Of a DNA stretch of 64,000 nt, positions 1-58,917 are shown in pieces. The notes under the pieces are model-generated. The model made no database searches. It saw only the letters and a list, made by a program, of their open reading frames with translations, and had not been told where the DNA came from. This stretch comes from Hyphomonadaceae bacterium (lineage in GTDB: Bacteria > Pseudomonadota > Alphaproteobacteria > Caulobacterales > Aquidulcibacteraceae): the NCBI GenBank assembly GCA_050184605.1, contig JBFXAE010000004.1, positions 217,723 to 281,722 on the forward strand, written 5' to 3'. The number at the start of each line of letters is the position of its first letter. Within the stretch, counting starts at the first letter, position 1. A program made the translations under genes and the position numbers.

Positions 1-2967
1 CAATCGCGCCGCATGGTCGAAAAGGAGCGTCCGGAAGTTTGGGACGTGCTCGAAGAGGTCATCCGCGAGCACCCGGTTCTTCTGAACCGCGCGCCGACGC
101 TGCACCGCTTGGGCATCCAGGCGTTCGAGCCGAAGCTGATCGAAGGCAAGGCGATCCAGCTGCACCCGCTGGTCTGCGCCGCGTTCAACGCTGACTTCGA
201 CGGCGACCAGATGGCCGTGCACGTTCCGCTGTCGCTCGAAGCGCAGCTGGAAGCGCGCGTGCTGATGATGTCCACGAACAACATCCTCTCTCCGGCGAAC
301 GGCAAGGCGATCATCGTGCCGTCGCAGGATATCGTGCTTGGTCTCTACTACCTCTCGCTGATGAAGGAAGGCGAGCCAGGTGAGGGCAAGCTGTTCGGTT
401 CGATCGGTGAAATCGAGTCTGCGCTCGAAGCGGGCGTCGTGACGCTGCACACCAAGATCAAGGCGCGCTACGAAACCGTCGATGCCGATGGCAAGCCGGT
501 GCGCAAGACGATCGAGACGACGCCGGGCCGCATGAAGCTCGCGGAAGTGCTGCCGAAGCATCCGAAGGTCAGCTATTCGCTGCTCGATCAGACGCTGACG
601 AAGAAGGAAATCGGCAACCTGATCGACAACGTCTATCGGTTCTGCGGCCAGAAGGCGACGGTGATCTTCGCCGATCGCATGATGCAGCTCGGCTTCAAGG
701 AAGCGGCGCGCGCCGGCATTTCGTTCGGCATGGCGGACATGGTCGTGCCGAAGGCGAAGGAAACGCTCGTCGAAGAAACGCGCAAGCGCGCTGCGGAATA
801 CGAGCAGCAATACGCCGACGGCCTCATCACCAAGGGCGAGAAGTACAACAAGGTCGTCGACGCCTGGTCGAAGTGCACCGACAAAGTTGCCGACGCGATG
901 ATGGAAGAGGCGTCGAAGCCGGCCAAACTCAAGGATGGCCGCACGGGCGAACTCAACTCCGTCTTCATGATGGCGCACTCGGGCGCGCGTGGTTCGAAGA
1001 ACCAGATGAAACAGCTCGCCGGCATGCGTGGCCTGATGGCCAAGCCGTCGGGTGAAATCATCGAGACGCCGATCATCTCGAACTTCAAAGAGGGCCTCTC
1101 GGTTCTCGAATACTTCAACTCGACCCACGGCGCCCGTAAGGGCCTCGCGGACACCGCGTTGAAGACCGCGAACTCGGGTTACCTCACGCGCCGTCTCGTT
1201 GACGTCGCGCAGGACTGCATCATCACCGAAGAAGATTGCGGCACCCAGGACGGCATCCAGATGACCCCGGTCATCGATGGCGCCGACATTGTCGTGTCGC
1301 TCGGCACCCGCATTCTCGGCCGTACGACGGCTCTGCCGGTCAACGATCCGGGCACGGGCAAGCAGATCGTGCCGGCGGGCGCCTTCCTCGATGAAGACAC
1401 CGTCGCGATGATCGAAAAGGCGGGCGTGCAAGCCGTTAAGGTCCGCTCTGTGCTGACCTGCGAAACGCGCACGGGCGTCTGCGGCGCTTGCTATGGCCGT
1501 GACCTCGCGCGCAACACGCAGGTGAATATCGGCGAAGCTGTCGGCGTCATCGCGGCGCAATCGATCGGTGAGCCGGGCACCCAGCTCACGATGCGCACGT
1601 TCCACATCGGCGGTGCGGCTCAGCTGGCTGAATCGTCCGTCATGGAATCGGCGCACGACGGCTCGGTGAAGTTCATCGACCGCAACACCGTGAAGAACGC
1701 CCAAGGCGATCTGATCGTGATGAGCCGCAACATGAAGGTCACGATTGTCGATGACGACGGCAAGGAGCGCCAGACCTTCAAGCCGCCGTTCGGCGCCCGC
1801 CTTCGCGTTGACGAGAAATCGAAGATCAAGCGCGGCGATCGCATCGCCGAGTGGGATCCCTACGCGACGCCGATCCTTACCGAAGTGGCCGGCAAGGTTC
1901 GCTTCGAGGATCTGACGGATGGCGTGGCCGTCCGTGACGAGTTCGACGAAGCCACCGGCATCTCGTCGAAAGTCGTCATCGATTGGCGCTCGACCACGAA
2001 GGGTACGGACCTGAAGCCGAGCATTTCGGTGCTCAATGCCAAGGGCGTTGCGACCAAGACGTACTCGCTGCCTGTCGGCGCCATTCTCTCGGTGGCCGAT
2101 GGCGACGAAGTTACGCCTGGCCAAGACCTTGCGCGGATGCCGACGGGTGGCGCGAAAACCCGCGACATCACGGGTGGTTTGCCGCGCGTCGCGGAACTGT
2201 TCGAAGCCCGCCGCCCGAAGGATCACGCGATCATCTCCGAAGGCGATGGCCGCGTGGAGTTCGGCAAGGACTACAAGAACAAGCGCCGCCTGCGCGTTGT
2301 GCCGGAAGATGAGAGCCTCGAGCCGATCGAGTACATGATCCCGAAGGGCAAGCACATTCCGGTGCAAGAAGGTGACTTCGTGAAGAAGGGTGACTACCTG
2401 CTCGACGGCAACCCCGCACCGCAGGACATCCTCTCGATCATGGGCGTCGAAGCGCTGGCGAATTACCTCGTTGAGGAAATTCAGAAGGTGTACCGCCTGC
2501 AGGGCGTGCCGATTAACGACAAGCACATCGAGGTGATCGTTCGCCAGATGCTGCAGAAGGTCGAGATCATGGAAGCGGGTGACACCGAATTCCTGAAGGG
2601 CGAAGCCGTCGAAGCGCTCGACCTCGAAGACGAGAACAAGCGCGTCAAAGAACTTGGTCTGCAGCCGGCGACGGCTCAGCCCATGCTGCTCGGCATCACC
2701 AAGGCCTCGCTGCAAACGCGCTCGTTCATCTCGGCGGCCTCGTTCCAAGAAACCACGCGCGTGCTCACCGAAGCTGCCTCCTACGGCAAGTCGGACACGC
2801 TCGAAGGTCTCAAGGAAAACGTCATCGTCGGCCGTCTCATCCCGGCCGGCACCGGCGGTCAGCTGCGTCGCTATCAAAAGCTCGCGGCGGAGCGCGATGC
2901 GCAACTGGCGATCGAGCGCGGCGAAGACGCCCGTCTGGCGCAGCCGCAAACCGAAGCGGCCGAATAA
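1..2967 (+). CDS. rpoC: DNA-directed RNA polymerase beta' subunit, 5'-truncated by the window edge
   Basis: Frame 1 is open from base 1. It contains the universal NADFDGDQM catalytic motif and [21 protein letters not shown], and is collinear with RpoC through to the C-terminus. Confidence 0.97.
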
Positions 2968-2993
2968 GACTCAGGGAAGAAACGTCCATAAAC

Positions 2994-3030
2994 AAGCGGC
3001 CCGGGAGCGATCCCGGGCCGCTTCAATTTG
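2994..3030 (+). terminator. Rho-independent terminator after rpoC
   Basis: Stem aagcggcccggg, loop agcga, stem cccgggccgctt, followed by caatttgtg. Confidence 0.6.
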
Positions 3031-3034
3031 TGAC

Positions 3035-5206
3035 TCAGAACTGGGGTACTGGGGGTCCGCCGGGCTGTTGCTGGTCCTGCGGCGGCCGCTGCGGGCCTGA
3101 GCCGAATTGGTAGGTCAGCCCGAACCGCACGCGCGCGCCGGGGCTCGCGAACTCGGTGCGTTCGAAATAGTCGTCGGTCGTGATCTCGGAGACGTTGTTC
3201 TGCGAGCTGAAGATGTCTTGCGCCATCAGGTTGGCGTAGAGGCGATCCGTGAGTTTTCGCCGCCAAGTGAAGTTGGCCGTGACGAACTCATCCAGATCGC
3301 TTTGCAGCGTGTGGCGCGGACCTTGGAAGCGTAGTTCGAACTGCAGCTGATCGGCGCCGATCGCGTTTTGATCGACATCGCGATAATCGAGCGAGGCGGA
3401 GCCGTCATATTCGAACTCGCTGCGACGCGTGGTGACGCCGCCGCTCAGCGCGTCGAACTCCCGCTCCATCAGGTTGATGTTGGCGGAATAGCGCCAGTTC
3501 TCGTTGATCGGCGCGCGGAGGATGGCTTGCACCCCGCGTTGCTCGCTTGTGCCGGCGTTGACGGTCGTCGTCAGGATCACGCCATCGGGCGTCACTTCCG
3601 TGAATGGTGAGAAGATGTCGTCGCTGATGCGGTTGTAGAAGGTGAGGCTGAAGCTCTTGCCAGCATTCTGGTAGGTGAAATTGGCCTCGTACGCATCGGT
3701 AAGGGACGGCTCCAGCAATGGATTGCCGCCTATGGCGCGGTTGGTGTCGATGAAGCGAAGATTGGGATCCAACTGCTGGAAACCTGGGCGCTGAATGCGG
3801 CTGGTGTAGCTCAGATCGACATTGATGTTGTTGCCGAGCCCGCGCCGGATATGGATGCTCGGGAAGTATCGGGTGTCGACGTCGTCTGTCTCCAGTCCGC
3901 CGGAGACGACTTCGCGGCGATAGCTCTCAGCACGCAGACCGGGTTGCCAGGTCCAATCGCCGGTCTCGAACTGGAACGTGCCGTAAGCGGCGAGCGTCTG
4001 CTGGCGGCCTTCGAGCAAAGTCGTGAAATCCGGCGGGACCGCGGGGCCGGACAGCGTTTCGCGCCGGTTTTCGATGTCTTGGTCGGAGGTGTCAAACGCG
4101 AGGCCCATGCTGAGAAAGCGATCTTCGCCGAAGGGGCGATCGTATTCGAGGCGCGTATTGGTGTTGGTCTGATCAGCGGAATTGCTGGCGAGCACTTCGC
4201 TCGCGACACCGATGACGGGCGTGAACGAGAACGTCTGATCGAAATCGACGCCGTGCTCCTGAACCATGGTGTTGAAGCGCAATTGTTCGCGTGGGCGCGT
4301 GCCGTCTTGCTGGAAATCGAAGGTGAGCTGATCGTTGCGGAATTCGACTTCGTTCAGGATTGCTTGCGAAGAGAAGGGCGCGCCGTTCAGGGCCGTCTCC
4401 GTTTCGCGCAGAATGTCATTGCCGCCGCGCACGTTGTCGAAGGCGAGGCTGAGGCGGCGGCGCTCGTTCGGGCGGTAGCCGAGTGTCAGGCGGCTTAGAT
4501 AGCGGCCGCCGAACTCGACTTGCTGATCGCCGTCTTCCTGCGTCGTGTCGCCTGAACCGAAGATCTCACGCTCGCGTTGAAAATCTTGCGTCTGTTCGCC
4601 GGTCCAGAAGCCGGCGCCGCCGCTCAGGGACCAGGGCCCGCGCGACCAGGTGGCGGACACGCCGCCGTTTGCGCTGTTCAATGTATCGACGCCGGCTTGA
4701 ATCGAGCCGTTGAACCCGCCGGTGAGGCGCTGGCGCGTGATGATATTGATAATCCCGCCGGACGCTGCAGCCGAATATTGCGCCGACGGGTTGGTGATGA
4801 CTTCGATGCGCTCGACCTCGGCGCCGGTTATCCCGCGTAACACCTGCTCGAGGTTCGTGCCGGGCACCGGCTGGCCGTTGATCTGGATAGTGACGTTATC
4901 GGCGCCCAGCAGCGTCACCGCGCCCGATGGCGCGACGCTGACCGAGGGAATGCGGCCGAGCACATCATACATGTTGGTGCTTTGCGCCGTCGCGTCGTCG
5001 CGGAGCGCATAGGTGCGGCGATCGATGCGGACCCGGTCGCCCGGCTCGGCCACGACGATGATGTCGTCGCCAAGGTCTTCCTCTTCCTCGGCTTGGTCAG
5101 CAGCAGCGGCAGGCGGGGCCGGCGGCGAAGCTGGCGCCTGTTGGGCGTAGGCGACGCTCGCGCTCGCCAACAGGGCGGCAACGCCTGAATAAATGACCCG
5201 ATTCAT
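3035..5206 (-). CDS. TonB-dependent outer-membrane receptor
   Basis: Signal peptide MNRVIYSGVAALLASASVAYAQQ. It has a plug-domain-like N-terminus, a long beta-barrel-type composition and a C-terminal aromatic residue (..PVPQF). Confidence 0.85.
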   Translation of the reverse strand: MNRVIYSGVAALLASASVAYAQQAPASPPAPPAAAADQAEEEEDLGDDIIVVAEPGDRVRIDRRTYALRDDATAQSTNMYDVLGRIPSVSVAPSGAVTLLGADNVTIQINGQPVPGTNLEQVLRGITGAEVERIEVITNPSAQYSAAASGGIINIITRQRLTGGFNGSIQAGVDTLNSANGGVSATWSRGPWSLSGGAGFWTGEQTQDFQREREIFGSGDTTQEDGDQQVEFGGRYLSRLTLGYRPNERRRLSLAFDNVRGGNDILRETETALNGAPFSSQAILNEVEFRNDQLTFDFQQDGTRPREQLRFNTMVQEHGVDFDQTFSFTPVIGVASEVLASNSADQTNTNTRLEYDRPFGEDRFLSMGLAFDTSDQDIENRRETLSGPAVPPDFTTLLEGRQQTLAAYGTFQFETGDWTWQPGLRAESYRREVVSGGLETDDVDTRYFPSIHIRRGLGNNINVDLSYTSRIQRPGFQQLDPNLRFIDTNRAIGGNPLLEPSLTDAYEANFTYQNAGKSFSLTFYNRISDDIFSPFTEVTPDGVILTTTVNAGTSEQRGVQAILRAPINENWRYSANINLMEREFDALSGGVTTRRSEFEYDGSASLDYRDVDQNAIGADQLQFELRFQGPRHTLQSDLDEFVTANFTWRRKLTDRLYANLMAQDIFSSQNNVSEITTDDYFERTEFASPGARVRFGLTYQFGSGPQRPPQDQQQPGGPPVPQF

Positions 5207-11300: not shown

Positions 11301-11409
11301 TCAAGCTCCTTTGCGCATCCCGTGACGCGTGTCACATCCATAAGGCAAACGGCCTATTACCTTCCACTCATCGGATCGATGGACGGTTCGACGAGAGATG
11401 GAGCAGGAA

Positions 11410-11502
11410 ATGACCAAGTTGTATTGCCTCGTTGCGGCGCTGGCGGTGTTTGCCCCCTTTGCGTTCGTCACCATGAACCAAGCCGCGCAGATCGTTGCGT
11501 AA
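11410..11502 (+). CDS. 30-aa signal-peptide-like mini-protein, fifth paralogue of the 56951-57925 family
   Basis: MTKLYCLVAALAVFAPFAFVTMNQAAQIVA, with SD GGAGCAGGAA directly upstream. It has the same FAP..QAAQIVA-stop architecture as the four array copies. It is not in the ORF track because it is too short. Confidence 0.6.
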   Translation: MTKLYCLVAALAVFAPFAFVTMNQAAQIVA

Positions 11503-11590: not shown

Positions 11591-11615
11591 AGGGCGCCGG
11601 TCCGACCGGCGCCCT
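11591..11615. terminator. Shared hairpin terminator between two convergent mini-ORFs
   Basis: agggcgccgg tccga ccggcgccct. On the minus strand it is followed by cacTTTTgtg, and on the plus strand by ttcgc. Confidence 0.55.
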
Positions 11616-11622
11616 TTCGCTA

Positions 11623-11712
11623 TCAAAGATGACTGGCGATGTAGGCGTAGACACCGGCCGCCACCGCCAGCGCTAGTAGCAGACCAAAGAACGGGAAGAT
11701 GAGGGCGCGCAT
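11623..11712 (-). CDS. 29-aa hydrophobic mini-protein (single TM)
   Basis: MRALIFPFFGLLLALAVAAGVYAYIASHL. It ends 8 nt before the hairpin. The SD is weak and I recognise no family. Confidence 0.35.
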   Translation of the reverse strand: MRALIFPFFGLLLALAVAAGVYAYIASHL

Positions 11713-11813
11713 CGTTTTCCGGTCCATGCATCCGGTCTTGAAGCGGATTCCTGTCCAAACTTCCATCCCGCGAGTTCTTGAAATGTTCCTATCTTAGGAC
11801 TACAGTCCCATGC

Positions 11814-49766: not shown

Positions 49767-52700
49767 ATGGCCTTCGATTGGAAAGCGCTCGCGGAGCGCG
49801 TTGACCCGCGTAAATGGAACTGGTCTTGGGCCGCGCCCGCGCGCGACTGGGCCGTGGCGAACAGAGCCGTCGTGCTGGCGAGCTCGATTGCGCTGCTCGT
49901 TGGCCTATGGGGCGGGGCGGTGCTTGGCCGCGTCTCGCTCGGCGCGCCGGCGTTTGATTTCGCGCAGCTTGGTTCGATTGGCGCCGCCGAGAATGCGCGC
50001 GGCGCCAACGCGCCACGCGCGGGTCTGCCTGAAGTTGATGGCATGGCGTTCTTGCGCCTGCGCGCTGAGATGGATCGCGTCGAACCGCGTGCGTGTTTGG
50101 AATTCTCGCAGAATCTTTCGACCGACCCATCGGTCAACTTCGCAGACTATCTGCAACTGGAGCCGGCGGCGCCGTTCCAGGTCGATGTATCGGGCAATCT
50201 GTTGTGCTTGGGTGGTCTGCCTCTGGAGCCGGAGCGTCAGGTCACGATCCGCCAGGGTCTGCCGTCGCAGACCGGCGAACGCACCGAATTCGACGAAACC
50301 TTCACGCTCACCTTCGGCGACCGCCCCGCTTATGTCGGCTTTGCCGGCGGCGGCGTGATCCTGCCGCGTTCGGAAGCGGACGGCATCGCCATCGAAACGG
50401 TGAACGTGGCGCGCATCGAAGTCGAAGTGCTGCGCGTTCCGGACCGCATCCTCTCGCAGCATCAGCTCGACGAGGGCGACACCAACCAGGAGGGCGGTTG
50501 GGGCTATTGGAGTTTCAATAGCGCTGGCGAAGACGTCGGTGTTTCGGTCTATAAGGGCGAGATCGACATCGATACCCGCGTAAGAAATAGCGCGGTGACG
50601 ACCGTATTTTCGCTGGCCGGTGCGCTGCGCGAAATGCGGCCCGGCGCTTATGTCGTCAAGGTGAGAGACGTCACGCCGGGCGCAGGCCAGCGCGGCGAAA
50701 GCGATTATGACTCGCCGGCGTCATCCTATCGCTGGATTCTCTACACAGACATGGCGCTGCAGAGCTTCTCCGGCGCCTCAGGTCTCGATGTCGTTGTGCG
50801 GTCGCTGCGCACGGCGCGGCCGATGAGCAATGTGACGCTGACGCTGATCGCGGCGAACAATGAGGAACTGGCGCGCACGCGGACGGACCGTGATGGCCGC
50901 GTTCATTTCAATGATGCGTTGGTGAACGGAGAAGGCCCGTCGCGCGCCCGTTACGTGATGGCCTATGGCGCCGAAGGCGATTTCGCCGCGCTCGATCTGC
51001 AGCGCCCGAGTCTCGATCTCTCCGACCGCGGCGTCGATGGCCGCCGCGCGCCGGGTGATGTCGATGCGTATCTCTACACGGAGCGCGGCATCTACCGGCC
51101 GGGTGAGCGCGTGCGCCTCATGGGTCTCATCCGCGATCAAGTCGGCCGCGCAATCTCGAACCGGCAATCGACGCTCGTCGTCTATCGCCCGAATGGCACC
51201 GAGGCGCGCCGTATTCGTCTATTGGAAGCGGCTGACGCCGGCGCCATCGCAAAGAATATCGATCTCGATCGCTCGTCGCCGCGTGGCGTTTGGCGGGCGC
51301 AACTCATTGTCGATGGGCAGGAGGAAGTCGCCGGCTCGGTGAGCTGGTCGGTTGAAGACTTTGTGCCGGAACGTCTGCGGGTGCAGATCGAAGCTAGCGA
51401 AGACGTGCTCCGGCGCGGGCAATCGCGGCCGATCAATGTGCAGGCTGATTTCCTCTATGGGGCGCCGGGCTCTGGCCTCGCGGTTGAGGCGGAAGGTCGG
51501 CTGATGATTGACCCGAACCCGTTCCCGGAGATGGAGGGGTATAGCTTTGGCGTCTCCGATGAGAGCTTCGACGAGCGTTATTTCCAACTACCCGGCACGG
51601 TGACGGATGGCAGCGGCGCCGCGCAGCTTTCCTTCCAGCTGCCGGAGGAACCGCAGGTCACGCAGCCGCTGCGTGCGCGCATGATCGCAAGTGTCGCCGA
51701 TCCGGGCGGGCGCGTGGTGCGTGAAAGCTTCACGGTGCCGGTGCGCCTGAACGATTTCTATTTCGGCGTGAGGCCGACGTTCGAGAACCGGCGCGCCGGC
51801 CAGGGCGAAGTCGTTGGCTTTGATGTGATCGCGCTCAACGGTAACGGGCAGCGCGTCGCCGTGCGCGGCGTACAATGGCAGGTCGTGCGTGAGGAATGGA
51901 ATTACGACTGGTACTTGGACGGTGGCCAGTGGCGTTGGCGGCGGACAGGACGCGACATTCCGGTCGACGGCGCCACGGCTGATGTCAGCGCCGGGCAGGC
52001 GCTGCGCATCACTGAAGAGGGCCTGCGCTCGGGTTCGTATCGGTTGATCCTGCGTCGCGGCGATCAGATCGTCGCCTCGCAACGCTTCGGCGTCGGTTGG
52101 GGTGGCCCGGCTGATGATGACCAAACGCCGGACATGGTCAGCGTCGTTGCGCCGACAGAGCCGGTGCGTCCGGGTGCGCGTGCGCGTGTGCAAATCCGTC
52201 CGCCCTATCCTGGCGAGGCGCAAATCGTGGTGGCGACGGATCGTGTGATCGAAACACGCACCGTTCGTGTCGGCGCCGACGGCGCAACCATCGATCTGCC
52301 GGTGACGGCGGAGTGGGGCTCGGGCGCTTATGTGCTCGTGACCGTGATGACGCCGCGCGATCCGGTGAATCTGCCAGTGCCGCGTCGCGCGATTGGCGTC
52401 GGGTATGTGCCGGTTGATATGGGTGGGCGCACGCTCACCGTTGAAGCTGGCGAAGGCCTGCAGAATGTACGTCCGCGGACGCGCATCGAAGTGCCTGTGC
52501 GCGTGACCGGAGGCGGCTCGGGCGAGCGCGTGCGCGTTGCGATCGCGTTGGTGGATGAGGGCATCCTCAATATCACGAAGTACGAAAGCCCGAACCCGGT
52601 GAACTATTTCTTCGGCCGGCGCGCGCTGGGCGTGGAAATTCGTGACGATTACGGCCGCTTGCTCAATCCGAATCTTGGCGCACCGGCGACGGCGCGGCAG

Positions 52701-54800
52701 GGCGGCGACTCGTTGGGCGGCGAGGGGCTAACCGTTGTGCCGACCCGCACGGTCTCGCTCTATTCCGATATCGTCGAAGTGCGCGGCGGCCGGGCGATGA
52801 TCCCGATCGATGTGCCTGACTTCAACGGCACGCTGCGGCTCATGGCGGTGGCGTGGAGCGAGAATGCGCTGGGGCAGGACGCCGAGCAGATCGTCGTGCG
52901 CGATCCTGTCGTCGCTGAACTGATTCTGCCGCGCTTCCTGGCGCCGGGCGATCAAGCGCAAGGCGCGTTGAACATCGACAACGTCGAAGGGCCGAACGGC
53001 GCTTACACGGTGACGATCAGTGGCTCATCGACAGCGCAGATCGAAACGCAGCCGCGCCGCTTCAACCTGACCCGCGGCAATCGCCAACAAGCGATGATCC
53101 CGATCACGGGCGGACCGCTGGGAGTTGGCGAAATCCGTCTGCGTCTTGAGGGCCCGCAAGGCTTCACGCCGGTGGAACGCAGCTACGACATCCAATCGCG
53201 AGCGCCGTTCTTGCCGATCACCATCACCCGCACTGAGCCGCAAGCGGCCGGCGCGCAGTGGCGGGCGCCCTCCGATGCCTTGGCCGGCTTCCAGCCAAGC
53301 GCGCAGGCGTTGATCTCGTTCTCGAACCTGGCTGGCATCGATCCTGCGCCGTTGCTGGATTCGCTCTATCGCTATCCGTACGGTTGCACCGAGCAGCTCA
53401 CCTCGGTGGCGATGCCGCTACTCTACTACAATACGCTTGCGGCCGAAGCGAACCGCGCCGCCGATCCGCGCATTCGCCGCCGCATCCAAGAAGCGGCGAC
53501 ACAATTGCTCGATCGCCAAGCGCCGGACGGTTCGTTTGGACTATGGAGTGCGGGCGATGGCCACGCGACGCCGTGGCTCGGCGCCTACGCGACGGATTTC
53601 TTGTTGCGGGCGCAACGCGCAGGTTACGCCGTGCCACGTCAGCCGATGCAGCAAGCCTACAGCGCGCTTCGGCGTGTCGCGCGGCTGAACGATTTCGGCT
53701 CCGTGCGCTACGAGTTCGACGTCTATCGCTGGCCCGGTTCGAACGACACAAGCGAGTTGCTGCGTTCGCGCGCCGCCGCCTATGCGCTCTACGTTCTGGC
53801 GCGCGCGGGTGAAGCCGATATCGGCCAGCTCCGGTATTTCCACGATAACCGCCTGAACAATGAGCCTTCGCCGTTGGCGCGGGCGCAGATCGGTGCGGCG
53901 CTGGCCCACATGGGCGACCGTGCGCGCTCGCGCAACGCCTTCCGTCTGGCGGAGCGGGCGCTTGGCTATCGCAATATTGGTGACTGGTATCAGACACCGC
54001 TGCGCGATCTCGCTGGCGTGCTGGCGTTGGCCGCTGAAGCGGGTGAGACCGAGTTGGTCGATCGTCTGCGCCGCCGCCTCGAACGCGACGCACCGGACGC
54101 AGGCGACCTGATGACGCAAGAGCAAGTGCAATTGCTGCTCGCGGCGAATGCACTGCAAGAGCGCGCTGGCCCCGTGAACGTGACGCTGAACGGTCAAGCC
54201 TTGGCGGAACGCCGCACGATGGCGAACGCGCAGCAGCTTGCCGCTGGCCTCGTGTTCCGCAACGCGGCGCGCGGCCCGGTGTGGCGGACGACCGCGCTCA
54301 CCGGCGCGCCGATCCAAGCGCCGCCTTCGATGCGTGCCGGCTACACGATCGATAAGACCATCTACCGTCTCGACGGAACGTTGGCTGATCTAGGTTCGTT
54401 GCGCCAAGGCGATCGGGTCGTCGTCGTGCTCTCGGGCCAGCCCGAAGGCGCGCGCAACTTCCCGACAGTGCTCGTCGATCTGCTGCCGTCCGGCTTGGAG
54501 ATCGAGACGCTGCTTAATCCGAGCGATGGCGCGGGCGCGACGGGCTATGATGGCGCGACGCGCAACGGGCCGTTCGCCTGGATCGGCTCGATCACCTACA
54601 CGCAAGTGCAGGAGATGCGCGACGATCGCTATGTGGCATCGGCGAATCTGCGCGGCCAGTTCCGATACGCGTACATCGCGCGTGCGGTGACGCCAGGCCG
54701 CTACACGCTGCCGGCGGCGCAAGTCGAGGACATGTATCGCCCAGGCGTGATGGCGCGGACCGAGACCGGCACGATCGTGATCGCGCCGCGGGGCGGCTAA
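49767..54800 (+). CDS. Bacterial alpha-2-macroglobulin family protein (thioester-containing)
   Basis: 1677 aa with an N-terminal TM anchor, MG-domain repeats and the thioester motif YPYGCTEQ. Confidence 0.9.
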   Translation: MAFDWKALAERVDPRKWNWSWAAPARDWAVANRAVVLASSIALLVGLWGGAVLGRVSLGAPAFDFAQLGSIGAAENARGANAPRAGLPEVDGMAFLRLRAEMDRVEPRACLEFSQNLSTDPSVNFADYLQLEPAAPFQVDVSGNLLCLGGLPLEPERQVTIRQGLPSQTGERTEFDETFTLTFGDRPAYVGFAGGGVILPRSEADGIAIETVNVARIEVEVLRVPDRILSQHQLDEGDTNQEGGWGYWSFNSAGEDVGVSVYKGEIDIDTRVRNSAVTTVFSLAGALREMRPGAYVVKVRDVTPGAGQRGESDYDSPASSYRWILYTDMALQSFSGASGLDVVVRSLRTARPMSNVTLTLIAANNEELARTRTDRDGRVHFNDALVNGEGPSRARYVMAYGAEGDFAALDLQRPSLDLSDRGVDGRRAPGDVDAYLYTERGIYRPGERVRLMGLIRDQVGRAISNRQSTLVVYRPNGTEARRIRLLEAADAGAIAKNIDLDRSSPRGVWRAQLIVDGQEEVAGSVSWSVEDFVPERLRVQIEASEDVLRRGQSRPINVQADFLYGAPGSGLAVEAEGRLMIDPNPFPEMEGYSFGVSDESFDERYFQLPGTVTDGSGAAQLSFQLPEEPQVTQPLRARMIASVADPGGRVVRESFTVPVRLNDFYFGVRPTFENRRAGQGEVVGFDVIALNGNGQRVAVRGVQWQVVREEWNYDWYLDGGQWRWRRTGRDIPVDGATADVSAGQALRITEEGLRSGSYRLILRRGDQIVASQRFGVGWGGPADDDQTPDMVSVVAPTEPVRPGARARVQIRPPYPGEAQIVVATDRVIETRTVRVGADGATIDLPVTAEWGSGAYVLVTVMTPRDPVNLPVPRRAIGVGYVPVDMGGRTLTVEAGEGLQNVRPRTRIEVPVRVTGGGSGERVRVAIALVDEGILNITKYESPNPVNYFFGRRALGVEIRDDYGRLLNPNLGAPATARQGGDSLGGEGLTVVPTRTVSLYSDIVEVRGGRAMIPIDVPDFNGTLRLMAVAWSENALGQDAEQIVVRDPVVAELILPRFLAPGDQAQGALNIDNVEGPNGAYTVTISGSSTAQIETQPRRFNLTRGNRQQAMIPITGGPLGVGEIRLRLEGPQGFTPVERSYDIQSRAPFLPITITRTEPQAAGAQWRAPSDALAGFQPSAQALISFSNLAGIDPAPLLDSLYRYPYGCTEQLTSVAMPLLYYNTLAAEANRAADPRIRRRIQEAATQLLDRQAPDGSFGLWSAGDGHATPWLGAYATDFLLRAQRAGYAVPRQPMQQAYSALRRVARLNDFGSVRYEFDVYRWPGSNDTSELLRSRAAAYALYVLARAGEADIGQLRYFHDNRLNNEPSPLARAQIGAALAHMGDRARSRNAFRLAERALGYRNIGDWYQTPLRDLAGVLALAAEAGETELVDRLRRRLERDAPDAGDLMTQEQVQLLLAANALQERAGPVNVTLNGQALAERRTMANAQQLAAGLVFRNAARGPVWRTTALTGAPIQAPPSMRAGYTIDKTIYRLDGTLADLGSLRQGDRVVVVLSGQPEGARNFPTVLVDLLPSGLEIETLLNPSDGAGATGYDGATRNGPFAWIGSITYTQVQEMRDDRYVASANLRGQFRYAYIARAVTPGRYTLPAAQVEDMYRPGVMARTETGTIVIAPRGG

Positions 54801-54809
54801 GGAGGCGTG

Positions 54810-56876
54810 ATGCGTCGCGGCCCCCGTGTCGCGCTGCCGCTAACGGCGAGTGGCAAGCGTTGGGCCGCTGCGCTCGGCGTCTTGCTGCTGACCGTGCTGG
54901 CGCTGGACTTGGCGTTCGCGCCGCCGCTGCATCGCGTGCGTGAGGTTTCGCCGGTTGTGCTCGATCACAACGGCGAATGGCTGATGGCGTTCACGACGCG
55001 CGATGGCGCATGGCGGCTTGAAGCGCGGCTCGACGAAATCGATCCGGAGTTTCAGCGGCGGCTGATCGCAATCGAAGATGAGCGCTTCTGGTTTCACCCC
55101 GGCTTCGATCCGATCGCGCTGACGCGGGCGAGTATTTCCTATGTACGGGCAGGGCGCGTCACTCAGGGCGGCTCGACGATCACGATGCAATTGGCGCGGC
55201 TGCTCGAGCCGCGCCCGCGCACGATTGGCTCGAAGCTCATTGAGATACTCCGCGCCATGCAGATCGAAGCGCGGATGTCGAAGCGCGAGATTTTGGCGGC
55301 GTATCTGACGATGGCGCCCTACGGCGGCAATCTCCAGGGCGTTCGCGCCGCTTCACGCGCGTATTTTCAACGCGACCCCCAATGGCTCGACGATTCCGAG
55401 ATGGCGCTTCTGATCGCGCTGCCGCAAGCGCCGGAAGCGCGGCGGCCGGACCGGCATCCGCAAGCGGCGCGCGCGGCCCGCGATCGCGTGCTCGACATGT
55501 TTGTTCGTGCGAACCTGATCACGCGCCGCCGCGCGGCGGAAGGCAGAGAGAGCGCTATTCCGACGCGTTCGCCATTCCCATACTCGGCGCCGCATGCGGC
55601 CTATGCGCTGGTGCGGGAGAATCCGGGCGCGGGCGTGATCCATTCTTCGCTGGACGCGACGCTGCAGCGCGACCTGGAAGCGCTGGTGCGCCGCAACGCC
55701 GGATCGTTGGAACGCGATGCGCAGATTTCCATCCTGGCCGTGCAGATTGACAGCCGCGCGGTCCGTGCGCGGGTCGGGGGCGCCGGCCGTGATCGGGCCG
55801 GCGGCTATATTGATATGACGCGCGCCGTGCGTTCGCCGGGTTCGGCGCTAAAGCCGTTCCTTTATGCGATCGCCTTCGATGAAAACATCGCGGCGCCGGA
55901 GACATTGGTGCGCGATGCGCCGCGGCGCTTCGGCGGCTATCTGCCTGAAAACTTCGACCGGCGTTTCCACGGCGACGTTACCCTCGAAGACGCGCTTCGC
56001 CATTCGCTGAACTTGCCTGCGGTGGCGACCTTGGAGCGAATTGGCGCCGGCCGTTTCCGGTCGGCGCTGCTGCGCGCTGGAGCGCAGGTGCGGATGCCGC
56101 GGCGTGCCAACGCCGAGCCGGGCTTGGCGCTGGCGCTCGGCGGTGTTGGGATGACTCTCGAAGATTTGGTGCAACTTTATGCGGCGCTGGGCGATGAGGG
56201 CGATGCGCGGCCGCTGGTGACGGGCGATGTCGCACCGTTCGCGTTCTCGCGGCGATTTGTGCGTCCGGAAACGGCAGAGCGTGTGCTGGAGATTCTGGCG
56301 AGCTCGCCGCATCCCGCCGGACGCGTGCCGGCGCAGATTGCGCAAGGCGCGCCGCAGGTGGCGTTCAAGACAGGTACATCCTACGGCTTCCGTGACGCCT
56401 GGGCGCTCGGGGTTTCGAACGGGTACGCCATTGGCGTGTGGGTCGGGCGTCCGGACGGCGCGCCGCGTCCGGGCGCGACGGGGCGAAGCGAGGCGTTGCC
56501 CATTCTGTTCGAAGCGTTTGATCTGATCGGCGCGCCGCCGCCGCCGGAGCATGAGCAGGAGCTGCATGAGCCTGTTGCGCCGGCGCTGGCGCGGTTCGAG
56601 GGCGGCGAGCGCGAAGGGCTCTCGATTCTGTTTCCGCCGTCAGGCGCCGAAGTGCTTGTGCTGGACTACGGTGCGGAGTCGCGCGGGCTCTCGCTTTCCG
56701 CGCGCGGCGGGCGTGGGCCGCTGACCTGGTACGCCGAAGGCGCGCGCGTGCCGGATGAAGAAACCAGCGGCCGCGCGATCTGGCGGCCTTCGGCGCCGGG
56801 CTTCTACGACGTCACCGTCGTCGATGCTGATGGCCAAAGCGCCAATGTGCGCGTGCGTATTCGCGACCGCGGCTAG
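54810..56876 (+). CDS. pbpC: Penicillin-binding protein 1C
   Basis: Glycosyltransferase motifs [10 protein letters not shown] and GGSTITMQ. Transpeptidase SxxK motif SPGSALKP. It lies immediately downstream of the alpha-2-macroglobulin gene. ATG at 54810 follows GGAGG. Confidence 0.9.
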
Positions 56877-56880
56877 TGCA

Positions 56881-56918
56881 AAGGAAAAGGCGCGGACCGT
56901 GGGAGGACGGTCCGCGCC
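56881..56918 (-). terminator. Rho-independent terminator of mini-gene A (hairpin also follows pbpC)
   Basis: ggcgcggaccgt/acggtccgcgcc stem followed by TTTTCCTT on the minus strand. Confidence 0.75.
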
Positions 56919-56950
56919 TGGCAACTGATGTCGCGATCTCGGGGGAGGGA

Positions 56951-57043
56951 TTACGCGACGATCAGAGCAGCTTGGTACAGCGCCGCATACGCGACGGGTG
57001 CGAAGAGCACGAACGCTGCGAGGACAAAGGCGAGCTTTTTCAT
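56951..57043 (-). CDS. Mini-gene A: 30-aa signal-peptide-like precursor ending QAALIVA
   Basis: MKKLAFVLAAFVLFAPVAYAALYQAALIVA. It has an SD-like GGAAG, its own terminator and the conserved upstream motif. Confidence 0.7.
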   Translation of the reverse strand: MKKLAFVLAAFVLFAPVAYAALYQAALIVA

Positions 57044-57077
57044 CTTACTTACTTCCGAACTGACTTGTTGTTGCCGT

Positions 57078-57115
57078 GTTGACTATGAGATGCCGGTGAG
57101 GCTCTCGGTGGATGC
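57078..57115 (-). promoter_or_regulatory. Conserved upstream motif of mini-gene A
   Basis: Minus strand reads GCATCC-N16-GCATCTCATAGTCAAC. Confidence 0.6.
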
Positions 57116-57147
57116 GGCGCCGCGAATTTTCGCGTTGCGTTTGCCCA

Positions 57148-57181
57148 ATACAAAAGGCGCGGAGCCCAAGCTCCGCGCCTT
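57148..57181 (-). terminator. Rho-independent terminator of mini-gene B
   Basis: aaggcgcggagc ccaa gctccgcgcctt followed by TTTTGTATT on the minus strand. Confidence 0.75.
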
Positions 57182-57213
57182 CGTTTTTGACCGTCGCTGG
57201 CGGGTGGGCAGGA

Positions 57214-57306
57214 TTAGGCGACGATCTGGGCAGCTTGCGCAAAGATCGCGACGGCGACCGGAGCAAACAGGGCGAAGGCGGCGGCGATAGAAGCAATCTT
57301 GGTCAT
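57214..57306 (-). CDS. Mini-gene B: 30-aa precursor ending QAAQIVA
   Basis: MTKIASIAAAFALFAPVAVAIFAQAAQIVA. SD GAGGGAAA. Confidence 0.7.
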   Translation of the reverse strand: MTKIASIAAAFALFAPVAVAIFAQAAQIVA

Positions 57307-57333
57307 TTCGTTTCCCTCAGTGTTTCAAACTCT

Positions 57334-57371
57334 GTTGACTATGAGATGCCGGCGCCTCGGCGTTCGGATGC
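57334..57371 (-). promoter_or_regulatory. Conserved upstream motif of mini-gene B
   Basis: GCATCC-N16-GCATCTCATAGTCAAC, followed by a GTTTGAAAC leader. Confidence 0.6.
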
Positions 57372-57454
57372 GGCGTGATGAGATTTTTCTGCACTTCGTT
57401 TTCGCATCGCTGTCCGGGCAAAAGCGCGGACCTGGCGTTTCCGCAGATGACGCG

Positions 57455-57489
57455 CAAAAGAAAAGCGCGGAGCCTATTGGCTCCGCGCT
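57455..57489 (-). terminator. Rho-independent terminator of mini-gene C
   Basis: agcgcggagcc tatt ggctccgcgct followed by TTTCTTTTG on the minus strand. Confidence 0.75.
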
Positions 57490-57517
57490 TCGGGGGTTCG
57501 TCACGAGCTTGGGGGAG

Positions 57518-57619
57518 TTACGCGACGATTTGGGCGGCTTGCGTGAGCGTCGCCAGGGCGATGGGCGTGAACAGAGCCAGTGCGACGGCGAAAGCGGCGA
57601 GTTTAGAAATTGTGTTCAT
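57518..57619 (-). CDS. Mini-gene C: 33-aa precursor ending QAAQIVA
   Basis: MNTISKLAAFAVALALFTPIALATLTQAAQIVA. SD GAGGGAAA. Confidence 0.7.
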   Translation of the reverse strand: MNTISKLAAFAVALALFTPIALATLTQAAQIVA

Positions 57620-57647
57620 CTCATTTCCCTCAAGCGTTTCAAACTTC

Positions 57648-57685
57648 GTTGACTATGAGATGCCGCGCCGCGGCGGTTTGGATGC
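57648..57685 (-). promoter_or_regulatory. Conserved upstream motif of mini-gene C
   Basis: GCATCC-N16-GCATCTCATAGTCAAC, followed by a GTTTGAAAC leader. Confidence 0.6.
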
Positions 57686-57760
57686 ACGCTCCGCTCGCTC
57701 TCATGCAGAACAGTCCTGCGAAATCGGGATCTCTTACGCGCGCTCTGCTGGTGACCGCAC

Positions 57761-57797
57761 AAAAGAAAAGCCGCGAACCTCTAGGGTGGTTCGCGGC
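57761..57797 (-). terminator. Rho-independent terminator of mini-gene D
   Basis: gccgcgaacc tctagggt ggttcgcggc followed by TTTTCTTTT on the minus strand. Confidence 0.75.
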
Positions 57798-57832
57798 TTC
57801 CTTAATTGACCGTCGCAGGCGGGTTTGGGGGA

Positions 57833-57925
57833 TCAGGCGACGATCAAAGCTGCTTGGTTGAGGGTTGCGACCGCGGCAGGCGCGAAGAAAGCCAGCGCGG
57901 CGGCGATGCAGAGAAACTTGGACAT
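57833..57925 (-). CDS. Mini-gene D: 30-aa precursor ending QAALIVA
   Basis: MSKFLCIAAALAFFAPAAVATLNQAALIVA. SD AGGGAG. Confidence 0.7.
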   Translation of the reverse strand: MSKFLCIAAALAFFAPAAVATLNQAALIVA

Positions 57926-57955
57926 TTGCTAGCTCCCTTATTGGCGTTGCGGTTC

Positions 57956-57994
57956 GTCTGAACCTCTGATGCAGCTAAGGTACGGATTGGATGC
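57956..57994 (-). promoter_or_regulatory. Conserved upstream motif of mini-gene D (diverged proximal box)
   Basis: GCATCC-N16-GCATCAGAGGTTCAGAC, with the same 22-bp phasing of the GCATC boxes. Confidence 0.5.
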
Positions 57995-58074
57995 AGGGGG
58001 CGCTGTGACTCCCGTCACACGATCGTGGATAAGGCTCCCGGCCGGGGCTGGATGGGGCCCCGGCCGGGCCCGAA

Positions 58075-58917
58075 CTACCGCCGGCGCGGCGGTTCGGGTG
58101 GAGCGGGGGGCGCCGGCGGCTCCGGCGGCGGCGCAGGCGGCTCGAACCGGACCCGGCCATCGCCATTGGCGTCGCTGGCGTCGAAGAAACGCAGATGCTG
58201 GGCCACGAACTCTTCGCGGCTCAGAGCCCCGTCGCCGTTGCGGTCGGCTTCCTCGGAGTTCGCGATCAGCATCATGAAGGGCACGGCCGGAACCGGCGGC
58301 ACTGGCGGGATCGGCGGCACGGGCGCGACAGCGCCTTCGAGCGATGTCCATGAGCCGCCCTCGCCATCGCCACTGCGAATGATGATCACATCGCGATCGC
58401 CATCGCGGAAGCGCTGAACGTGGCGCTCGGCCCGTTCGGCGTCGCGCTCGGCACGCTCAGCGGCGCGCTCGGCCAACCGTTCAGCTCTCTCCGCGGCGCG
58501 TTCGGCGTCACGTTCAGCCCGTTCGATGTGAATCTCGGCTCGCTGCATTGCTTCTTCAATTTCGCGCTCGATGCGCGCTTCGGTTTCCGGGTCGAGGTCG
58601 CCGGTGATGACGCGCACATCGCCGTCGCCGTGGCCGCCGCGGAAGACGCGGACGTTCGGCGCATCAACGCGAACGCGGATGTCGCGGCGGTCGGCGCTGT
58701 CGAGGCGGCCGTCATTATTGGTGTCGAGCTCGCTGAAAATGCGTTCATACGCGGAAGCCGCCTCGGCGCGCGTGATCCAGCCGTCTTCGTTGGCGTCGAT
58801 GCGGCTGATCGAGTCGCTGTCGCCGTGGATGATGACGTGCCGGCTGGTGGATTGGGCGCTGGCGGCGGCCACGGTTAACGCCGCGGCCGCGATGCCCAGG
58901 GCGATTGGAAGCTTCAT
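58075..58917 (-). CDS. Secreted EF-hand calcium-binding-motif protein with Glu/Arg-rich coiled coil and Pro-rich segments
   Basis: Signal peptide ..AASA/QS. DxDxDG-type loops (DANEDGWITRAE, DTNNDGRLD, DRNGDGALSREE, DANGDGRV). ERAERDAERAAERAERLAERAAERAERDAERAERH repeats. Confidence 0.8.
   Translation of the reverse strand: MKLPIALGIAAAALTVAAASAQSTSRHVIIHGDSDSISRIDANEDGWITRAEAASAYERIFSELDTNNDGRLDSADRRDIRVRVDAPNVRVFRGGHGDGDVRVITGDLDPETEARIEREIEEAMQRAEIHIERAERDAERAAERAERLAERAAERAERDAERAERHVQRFRDGDRDVIIIRSGDGEGGSWTSLEGAVAPVPPIPPVPPVPAVPFMMLIANSEEADRNGDGALSREEFVAQHLRFFDASDANGDGRVRFEPPAPPPEPPAPPAPPEPPRRR

Follow-up and report, generated by a model that had tools for sequence, protein, structure and literature searches.

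Within a 64,000-nucleotide stretch of DNA from a Hyphomonadaceae bacterium (contig JBFXAE010000004.1, positions 217,723 to 281,722; hereafter the window, whose own numbering is used throughout), we analyzed a tandem array of four very short genes on the minus strand at 56881..57994, together with a fifth copy located elsewhere in the window. As judged by comparison of related sequences, these genes belong to a new, tightly constrained micro-protein family that has dedicated promoters and an interlocked 3' hairpin module of the anti-Shine-Dalgarno (anti-SD) type, and both the peptide and the RNA look functional. Our leading interpretation, which we hold tentatively, is that the products are uncleaved single-span envelope micro-proteins, made from short regulated transcripts that carry a functional 3' RNA module. 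From the evidence presented below we infer membrane insertion without cleavage, a function in the envelope or in stress, and a regulatory role for the RNA.

A sequence-only reading of this DNA had described four minus-strand open reading frames (ORFs) spaced 263-313 bp apart, and both the sequences and the spacing matched the locus exactly. The ORFs start with ATG and contain 30, 30, 33 and 30 codons: unit A (56951..57043; MKKLAFVLAAFVLFAPVAYAALYQAALIVA), unit B (57214..57306; MTKIASIAAAFALFAPVAVAIFAQAAQIVA), unit C (57518..57619; MNTISKLAAFAVALALFTPIALATLTQAAQIVA, a 30-residue core preceded by three N-terminal residues) and unit D (57833..57925; MSKFLCIAAALAFFAPAAVATLNQAALIVA), with start-to-start distances of 263, 313 and 306 bp. 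A purine-rich Shine-Dalgarno (SD) sequence lies ahead of each. The degenerate pattern for the codons of the tail QAA[QL]IVA and its stop, CAAGCNGCNNNNATCGTCGCNTRA, matched the window five times, compared with 0.06 matches expected by chance. The fifth match, far from the array, is copy E (11410..11502, plus strand; MTKLYCLVAALAVFAPFAFVTMNQAAQIVA), the existence of which accounts for the mention of "five peptides" in the earlier reading. All five ORFs matched the family hidden Markov model (HMM). Exact look-ups found units B, C, D and E as called genes in public assemblies, always labelled "hypothetical protein", and orthologues of unit A occupy the matching array position in loci L001-L012, L020, L026, L047, L115 and L116.

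The peptides had not been recognized as any named family, and this view held: no significant match was obtained in Pfam, NCBIfam, PADLOC, PHROGs or the PDB sequences, a literature search on the tail motif gave no match, and every source names the family members "hypothetical protein". A profile built from the five peptides, as had been proposed for mapping their distribution, retrieved 187 clusters (50% identity, E<=1e-3) among 1.84 billion representative proteins. Most of these clusters are exactly 30 amino acids long with the tail ...QAA[QL]IVA-stop, and the profile matches nearly always reach the last or next-to-last residue, including those in longer, over-called cluster proteins. At the DNA level, a degenerate pattern in International Union of Pure and Applied Chemistry (IUPAC) code was scanned against one genome per species and matched at least 119 stretches. 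The family HMM was run on the six-frame ORF tails of these stretches and of other collected loci, and it confirmed at least 216 genomic ORFs (about 93 of the 119 pattern stretches listed, plus the other loci). Proteins of fewer than 50 amino acids are systematically missed by annotation, and few such families have been defined by comparative evidence. Constant in length and invariant at its C-terminus, with hundreds of diverged members, several paralogues in each genome and promoters of its own, the present family is among the most tightly constrained of the tiny families.

Small ORFs of this kind, which gene callers often skip, might be chance reading frames within a repeated non-coding element; beyond the small size, nothing further speaks for this explanation. 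The HMM match terminates at the stop codon in 213 of the 216 genomic copies, and the 30-residue core is present in 211. An ATG occupies profile position 1 in 166 of the 216, and the others carry short N-terminal extensions. Differences among distinct ORFs numbered 23009, 15651 and 36600 at codon positions 1, 2 and 3, respectively, so that third-position changes dominate, and the median ratio of nonsynonymous to synonymous substitution rates (dN/dS), also proposed earlier as a measurement, was 0.32. The +1 frame is interrupted by stops in 139/143 copies. These comparisons demonstrate purifying selection on the ORFs at the protein level, and the gene model is secure because of the match ends at the stop codon, the fixed core, the third-position excess, the dN/dS value and the stops in the +1 frame. 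The sequence-only reading had considered that related genomes might carry frameshifts or stops; we found instead that frame, length, start and stop are retained across hundreds of diverged copies. On such comparative grounds the chance-frame explanation is effectively refuted, and we give it a negligible probability.

Among the matches listed, the confirmed loci come from Terricaulis, Vitreimonas, "Hyphomonadaceae", "Caulobacteraceae" or Caulobacterales metagenome-assembled genomes (MAGs), or unclassified (alpha)proteobacterial MAGs, and the listed DNA pattern matches from other phyla had no match to the family HMM. Terricaulis silvestris has lately been transferred to Vitreimonas (PMC13109427). 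Copies are numerous in individual genomes, with at least five ORFs at four loci in CP096134.1 and at least seven ORFs in each of LNEK01 and JBFWYQ01. By all indications from these searches, the peptides form a real, previously unnamed family that is specific to the Terricaulis/Vitreimonas lineage of Caulobacterales, poorly studied and environmentally common stalked bacteria of soil and activated sludge or wastewater.

A family ORF with a class-2 promoter (defined below) was also seen on the 4.8-kb contig DASPMA010000213.1 (L056), which is labelled Candidatus Binatia, a non-alphaproteobacterial MAG; this label probably reflects a binning error rather than horizontal transfer. A tblastn search against plasmids gave no family match. 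The only pattern match in a viral collection (IMG/VR) was an internal ...YQAAQIVAW... of a longer hydrophobic ORF (L132, 1614..1637), and we rejected it as a family member, judging a motif inside a longer ORF to be a chance match.

The 3' end of each array unit is physically interlocked with its reading frame. The codons ATC-GTC-GCN, which encode I-V-A, form the 5' arm of a first hairpin (hairpin 1), the C-rich loop starts at the stop codon, and the 3' arm reads GCGAC(GRT). In unit A, hairpin 1 (56930..56959, on the minus strand, as are all hairpins of the array) lies across the stop codon with the loop UAAUCCCUCCCCCGAGAU, and hairpin 2 (56884..56918), with a CCUCCC loop and a U tract, is an intrinsic terminator. 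The 3' module of unit B (57150..57226) comprises hairpin 1 at 57189..57226, with the loop CUAAUCCUGCCCACCCGCCA, and a terminator hairpin at 57156..57179; that of unit C (57458..57528) comprises hairpin 1 at 57498..57528, with the loop UAACUCCCCCAAGC, and a terminator at 57465..57488; and that of unit D (57762..57846) comprises hairpin 1 at 57807..57846, with the loop CUGAUCCCCCAAACCCGCCU, and a terminator at 57770..57797. Folding produced the two-hairpin 3' structure, terminator included, in all four units (z = -3.4 to -7.6). A terminator scan called minus-strand GC hairpins with T tracts for A, C and D, and it called the hairpin of B on the plus strand only. The loops read UCCCUCCCCC/CCUCCC in A, CCUGCCCACCC in B, CUCCCCC in C and UCCCCCAAACCC/CACCCUAGA in D, and B and C lack a C-rich terminator loop. 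Unit E has a terminator hairpin (11592..11618, plus strand) and no C-rich hairpin across its stop codon.

The hairpins and loops of this module are both conserved and enriched. The codon of V29 is GTC in 94% of copies, compared with 49% at internal Val codons, and the next commonest codon at this position is GTT, which preserves a G-U pair. Hairpin-1 stems of at least 8 bp were found in 35% of terminal units and in 6.6% of shuffled controls, and a C-rich pentamer is present in 56% of hairpin-1 loops. C-rich terminator loops (GCUCCC, CCUCCC) occur in 39/80 hairpins downstream of family ORFs, compared with 13/239 other terminator-like hairpins in those same loci, a nine-fold enrichment. The loops are specific to each paralogue (UCCCCCAAACCCGCC in D, UCCCUCCCCC in A, UCCUGCCCACCCGCC in B). 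That of the D type is nearly invariant in 16 aligned orthologue sequences, with a pairwise identity of 87% compared with 71% at codon position 3 (15 distinct orthologues). Because the D loop is more conserved than third codon positions, loop conservation argues for a sequence-specific RNA function. The tail QAA[QL]IVA is indeed encoded by different synonymous codons in each copy, from which selection on the peptide rather than on a DNA or RNA repeat had been deduced. The first part of this deduction stood, given the dN/dS value and the third-position excess; the exclusion of RNA did not, given the V29 codon, the hairpin arm and the C-rich loops. On the other side, copy E and the first genes of the tight gene pairs described below keep the peptide without the C-rich stop-codon hairpin, and therefore the peptide is not a by-product of the RNA. 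A separate codon preference was seen at Gln24, which is CAA in 165/186 distinct ORFs (89%), compared with 47% at Gln27; no RNA pairing partner was identified for it.

The hairpin module recalls the cuckoo RNAs (CcsR1-4 of Rhodobacter sphaeroides; ar14/NfeR1 of Sinorhizobium; RF02791, RF02344), which are likewise alphaproteobacterial, with adjacent hairpins and loops to whose anti-SD sequence the C-rich loops here bear a likeness. Cuckoo RNAs consist of two to four adjacent hairpins, the loop of each being the anti-SD sequence CCUCCUCCC (PMC4615179). They occur in clusters of up to nine, CcsR1-4 being tandemly clustered, and in Rhodobacter they are made from the untranslated region (UTR) of a small ORF (PMC4615179, PMC8034643); they and the units described here both appear to be stress-regulated (PMC4615179, PMC8034643). 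The units might accordingly act as riboregulators of this type, with two anti-SD-loop hairpins that pair with the ribosome-binding sites of target mRNAs and with an ORF that is secondary or serves to control the RNA. Consistent with this possibility are the tandem clusters like those of CcsR1-4 (PMC4615179, PMC8034643), the nine-fold enrichment of C-rich loops, the conservation of paralogue-specific loops above synonymous sites, the nucleotide-level constraint on the V29 and Gln24 codons, and Rfam matches to ar14 (28.0 bits, E = 0.006; the alignment lies weakly over hairpin 1 of unit A), ar7 (26 bits) and CcsR1 (16.0 bits). These scores, however, are far below gathering (58.8 for ar14 and 65.3 for CcsR1), and neither the window nor any of 18 related loci gave a gathering-level match. 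Instead of CCUCCUCCC, the loops read CCCUCCCCC, GCUCCC, CCUCCC or UCCCCCAAACCC; CCUCCUCCC itself was not seen on reading units A-D and copy E, no pattern search having been made for it. Rhodobacteraceae and Rhizobiales are the only groups in which cuckoo RNAs have been found; none were found in Caulobacterales, to which the present family belongs. A cuckoo RNA is non-coding and at most adjoins a basic, RNA-binding DUF1127 ORF (CIN1 context), whereas each module here has its own ORF, which is conserved, unrelated to DUF1127 and codes for a hydrophobic 30-mer; the module overlaps this ORF and uses its last codons as the first hairpin arm. Selection at the protein level across the whole peptide, the retention of the peptide in copies that lack the C-rich stop-codon hairpin, and the failure to find a target in the window also speak against a purely riboregulatory role, which we regard as very unlikely. 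We conclude that the units are of cuckoo-like design, yet are not members of the cuckoo family.

A combined arrangement seems to us possible, if on balance doubtful. Each transcript, about 200 nt in length, would represent a new type of dual-function RNA, in which a 30-residue envelope micro-protein is joined to a cuckoo-like riboregulatory 3' end. Hairpin 1 would be melted by the terminating ribosome, which would couple translation of the peptide to the exposure or occlusion of a paralogue-specific C-rich seed, and the five to seven or more paralogues would provide a combinatorial set of peptides and seeds under two stress-type promoters. If the 3' module is a riboregulator, it would bring the anti-SD design of the cuckoo type into another order and into a new arrangement, in which ORF and small RNA (sRNA) are physically interlocked.

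Two promoter layouts were recognized upstream of the family ORFs. Class 1, in outline GCATCC-N16-GCATCT, serves units A, B and C: an A/T-rich block comes first, then GCATCC, exactly 16 nt, and GCATCTCATAGTCAAC. Its two-box core occurs 80 times in the sequence collected, 66 times upstream of family ORFs, with an invariant spacer in all 66. The class-1 blocks lie on the minus strand at 57078..57115 in unit A (GCATCC-N16-GCATCTCATAGTCAAC), at 57334..57371 in unit B (57334..57389 with the upstream A/T-rich block GAAAAATCTCATCAC) and at 57648..57685 in unit C. Class 2, found at unit E, at gene pairs and at singletons, begins with the palindrome (T)GTGAC-N4-GTCAC(A), equivalent to the CRP consensus core TGTGA-N6-TCACA, followed by 22 nt, TAnnTT, CATCG, a short hairpin in the 5' UTR and an SD of the GGAGC type. 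The 22-nt spacing between palindrome and TAnnTT is kept in 84/88 class-2 sites, and the 5' UTR hairpin shows compensatory changes between copies. The class-2 promoter and leader of unit E (11322..11390, plus strand) contain the palindrome GTGACGCGTGTCAC (11322..11335), TACCTT (11358..11363) and the hairpin CGGAUCG..CGGUUCG (11372..11390). Unit D, the first gene of the array, has a hybrid promoter with elements of both classes (57957..58018, minus strand): the palindrome GTGACGGGAGTCAC (58005..58018) is followed by a 22-nt gap (21 nt from GTCACA) and by TACCTT (57977..57982), which is overlapped by the boxes GCATCC-N16-GCATCA (57957..57994). In the intergenic DNA of the window, the class-2 palindrome occurs only at units D and E. 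The proposal that each array gene is a transcription unit of its own, with its own SD and hairpin terminator, is well supported by these results: the SDs were seen, the terminator hairpins folded in all four units, and each unit has its own conserved promoter block.

A scan for the sigma-70 consensus gave no promoter, and the consensuses for sigma-54, RpoH, Caulobacter sigma-73 and known extracytoplasmic function (ECF) factors were rejected as having no fit to the class-1 block. In the class II arrangement of CRP/FNR, a 16-bp palindrome TGTGA-N6-TCACA precedes a -10 element and has its centre near -41.5; the class-2 geometry fits a putative activator site of this kind. The half-sites are also similar to those of the Caulobacter SpdR site, CTGCGAC-N5-GTCGCAG (PMC4830024), in which the spacer is one base longer. 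No CRP-family regulator was found among the ten window ORFs of 205-301 amino acids scanned against Pfam. The full class-2 composite occurs 58 times in about 1 Mb. Of these occurrences, 55 precede family ORFs and three, with palindrome-22 nt-TATCTC-CATCG, precede orthologues of a DUF883_C gene (about 91 amino acids; ElaB/YqjD-like, C-tail-anchored) at L031 5401 (+), L064 6820 (-) and L076 6498 (-). This match hints at a common stress or stationary-phase regulon with the peptide genes. Whether or not the peptide is cleaved or the RNA regulatory, the two promoter motifs define a compact and experimentally tractable regulon.

The anatomy of the peptide bears most directly on its fate. The family consensus is M-T-K-h-x-S-L-h-A-A-x-A-h-F-A-P-x-A-x-A-T-L-N-Q-A-A-Q-I-V-A. 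Among 301 distinct sequences, the strongest positions, at 3.3-4.3 bits each, are K3, A10, F14, P16, A18, Q24, A25, A26, I28, V29 and A30, and D and E residues are nearly absent. There are zero indels from K3 to the C-terminus. Position 3 is K or R in 97% of members, and the hydrophobic region (h-region) that follows is about 12 residues long; A10, F14, P16 and A18 in it are conserved to the same degree as the tail. AlphaFold gives a single continuous helix over residues 2-29 with a predicted local distance difference test (pLDDT) score of 88.9, a prediction that would equally be obtained for a signal peptide. A lipoprotein reading of I-A-A-C11 was rejected, the Cys being only 10 residues from the N-terminus and found in a minority of members.

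The sequence-only reading had called this layout a textbook Sec signal peptide with a signal peptidase I site. In our comparison the signal-peptidase motif is a good one without being universal, and possible cleavage is the basis of the main, serious rival to our interpretation. The products would be Sec-dependent precursors from which signal peptidase I removes a 20-residue signal peptide after A-x-A, releasing a conserved decapeptide (e.g. TLNQAAQIVA) into the periplasm or medium as a ligand of a PDZ domain, a tail-specific protease or a sensor, much as in Phr systems. The n-region M-T-K, the 12-residue h-region, the Pro at -5, the Ala at -3 (A18, 95% conserved) and the A, S or G at -1 (position 20, 83%) are canonical, and the C-terminal octapeptide, which always ends at the stop codon, is the most conserved block. 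In the remaining 17% of members, copy E among them, residue -1 is V, P, T, I, L or F. A fixed length combined with an h-region conserved position by position is unusual, unlike what is seen in ordinary signal peptides. The tail is almost identical across paralogues and species, unlike signalling peptides that bear specificity, and no dedicated receptor or exporter gene is linked. The precursors of Phr of Bacillus and SHP of streptococci are also short and carry M-K/T-K and a hydrophobic stretch, with function residing in the C-terminal 5-10 residues, and Phr precursors are exported via Sec and signal peptidase. These systems, however, are Gram-positive; a cognate receptor gene (Rap or Rgg) accompanies each peptide gene, and mature sequences differ so as to confer specificity, whereas the present family has a nearly invariant tail and no linked receptor gene. 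Release of the decapeptide is a reading we take seriously while considering it unlikely; if the peptide is cleaved, it would represent a rare Sec-exported oligopeptide system in a Gram-negative bacterium.

We ranked the uncleaved single-span protein first, and only modestly so, because the conservation of the h-region is position-specific and because there are no indels from K3 to the C-terminus. The peptide would insert with its N-terminus in the cytoplasm, Lys3 inside, and would stay in the inner membrane as an uncleaved single-span helix, with the invariant tail N-Q-A-A-Q-I-V-A-COOH at the periplasmic face. The tail may bind a conserved envelope partner, or the peptide may pack into homo- or hetero-oligomers, for which the tight gene pairs would supply two subunit types. 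Expression would depend on conditions of stress or stationary phase, a suggestion made because the class-2 promoter is common to the DUF883 (ElaB/YqjD-like) gene. The 3' hairpin module may add an RNA function, either in stability or in base-pairing via anti-SD-like loops that differ by paralogue type. Small single-span membrane proteins such as MgrB, MgtS, PmrR, AcrZ, CydX and KdpF, and SidA of Caulobacter, are about 30-50 amino acids long, are often unannotated and bind larger membrane proteins. The present peptides resemble them in size, in having one hydrophobic helix with an N-terminal positive charge, and in frequently escaping annotation; they differ in having no sequence similarity to them, at least five to seven paralogues per genome in arrays or pairs, a strictly constant length and a C-terminal octapeptide that does not vary.

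Several results count against the uncleaved envelope protein with a functional RNA module. A-x-[AGS] is present at positions 18-20, with Pro at -5, in 248/301 distinct members (82%). The conservation spectrum has no power near 100 degrees, that is, no helical-face period of 3.6 residues, and the placement of the conserved residues on one helical face was rejected. Conservation over positions 8-24 instead has a period of 2 (A10, A12, F14, P16, A18, A20, L22, Q24; permutation p ~0.003), which fits an extended strand in the groove of a peptidase or partner, contacted by the side chains at -1, -3, -5 and -7, at least as well as it fits a packed helix; in the case of decapeptide release, alternate side chains would face the enzyme groove. 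Neighbour-gene clustering found no universal partner gene for the dispersed copies, and the case for a stress regulon comes from a single co-regulated gene family. With regard to the RNA, pairing in cis of the 3' loops with the unit's own SD was not supported (SD flavour versus loop flavour, p = 0.25), the SD did not pair consistently with the 3' loops in minimum free energy (MFE) folds, and a search of the window for loop targets returned self-antisense and GC-rich coding matches only, and no target.

The period-2 pattern also fits two opposite period-4 Ala stripes of an oligomerising helix, which is compatible with helix bundles and brings in a further possibility, namely that these are toxin-like, pore-forming peptides. 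Type I toxins (Hok, TisB, Ibs, Ldr, Zor) are small, hydrophobic and often tandem, and their translation is under the control of mRNA structure, including a 5'-3' fold-back in hok. The peptides here, at about 30 residues, are likewise hydrophobic and tandemly amplified; their helices would oligomerise via the Ala stripes and depolarise the membrane, and the C-rich 3' loops, complementary in principle to the G-rich SDs, would check translation by folding back on them as in hok. The SDs, however, are strong and mostly unpaired in the MFE folds, and the SD and loop flavours are unlinked. Nor is there an evident antitoxin RNA gene, antisense or divergent: terminator and promoter blocks take up the 170-430-nt spacers, and we recognized no conserved antisense element or promoter there. 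In addition, known type I toxins are far less conserved in sequence motif than these peptides, the C-terminus here has no charged residues, the promoters appear to depend on an activator and also serve a stress protein, and PADLOC gave no match. We found no specific support for the toxin-like reading offered earlier and consider it improbable; like the pure sRNA reading, it is less likely than decapeptide release by signal peptidase I.

The family genes occur in several arrangements. Spaced arrays with gaps of 170-430 nt, as in the window, exist alongside tight bicistronic pairs with gaps of 12-48 nt, in which a gene of the MTKFYSLxLAALLxAPxAYATLNQAAQ[IM]VA type comes first and one of the MTKFYALIAACAVFAPVAMATLNQAAQIVA type second; this division of types suggests two kinds of subunit. 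Some copies are singletons, among them copy E and a paralogue with pckA on one side and a chvI-like regulator gene on the other. The array of the window is flanked by a gene for an EF-hand protein (58075..58917, minus strand, as is the array) and by a convergent pair of genes for alpha-2-macroglobulin and then pbpC (PBP1C), at 49767..56876 on the plus strand. In many genomes the paralogues recur in the order D-(C)-B-A, with the EF-hand gene and pbpC on either side; C is absent from some. Because this order and synteny are kept across many genomes, the array paralogues appear to be old and individually maintained rather than recent amplifications. The only recurring neighbourhoods were the orthologous synteny of the array (EF-hand ... 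pbpC) and that of copy E, which is located between a FolB-like gene and a radical-SAM/SDR neighbourhood in surroundings that are kept in relatives.

Upstream of the array lie genes for the EF-hand protein, a beta-lactamase-family protein and a two-component system of the OmpR type; the neighbourhood is envelope-themed. In some relatives (L002, L004 and L005, ~1900-3900), an insertion of an IS1595-family transposase gene and extra ORFs separates the EF-hand gene from the first array unit and leaves the array itself intact. Immediately downstream of copy E, on the opposite strand (11623..11766, minus), lies an ORF of 47 amino acids with a hydrophobic C-terminal half (MEVWTGIRFKTGCMDRKTMRALIFPFFGLLLALAVAAGVYAYIASHL), which may be spurious or may encode a further small membrane protein missed by annotation. 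The paralogue between pckA and the chvI-like response regulator gene, MTKFYSLVAALAVFAPVAMATMTQAAQMVG, lies near an NtrZ gene (L133-L138, ~2900-3150), has a class-2 promoter and was found in many wastewater metagenomes.

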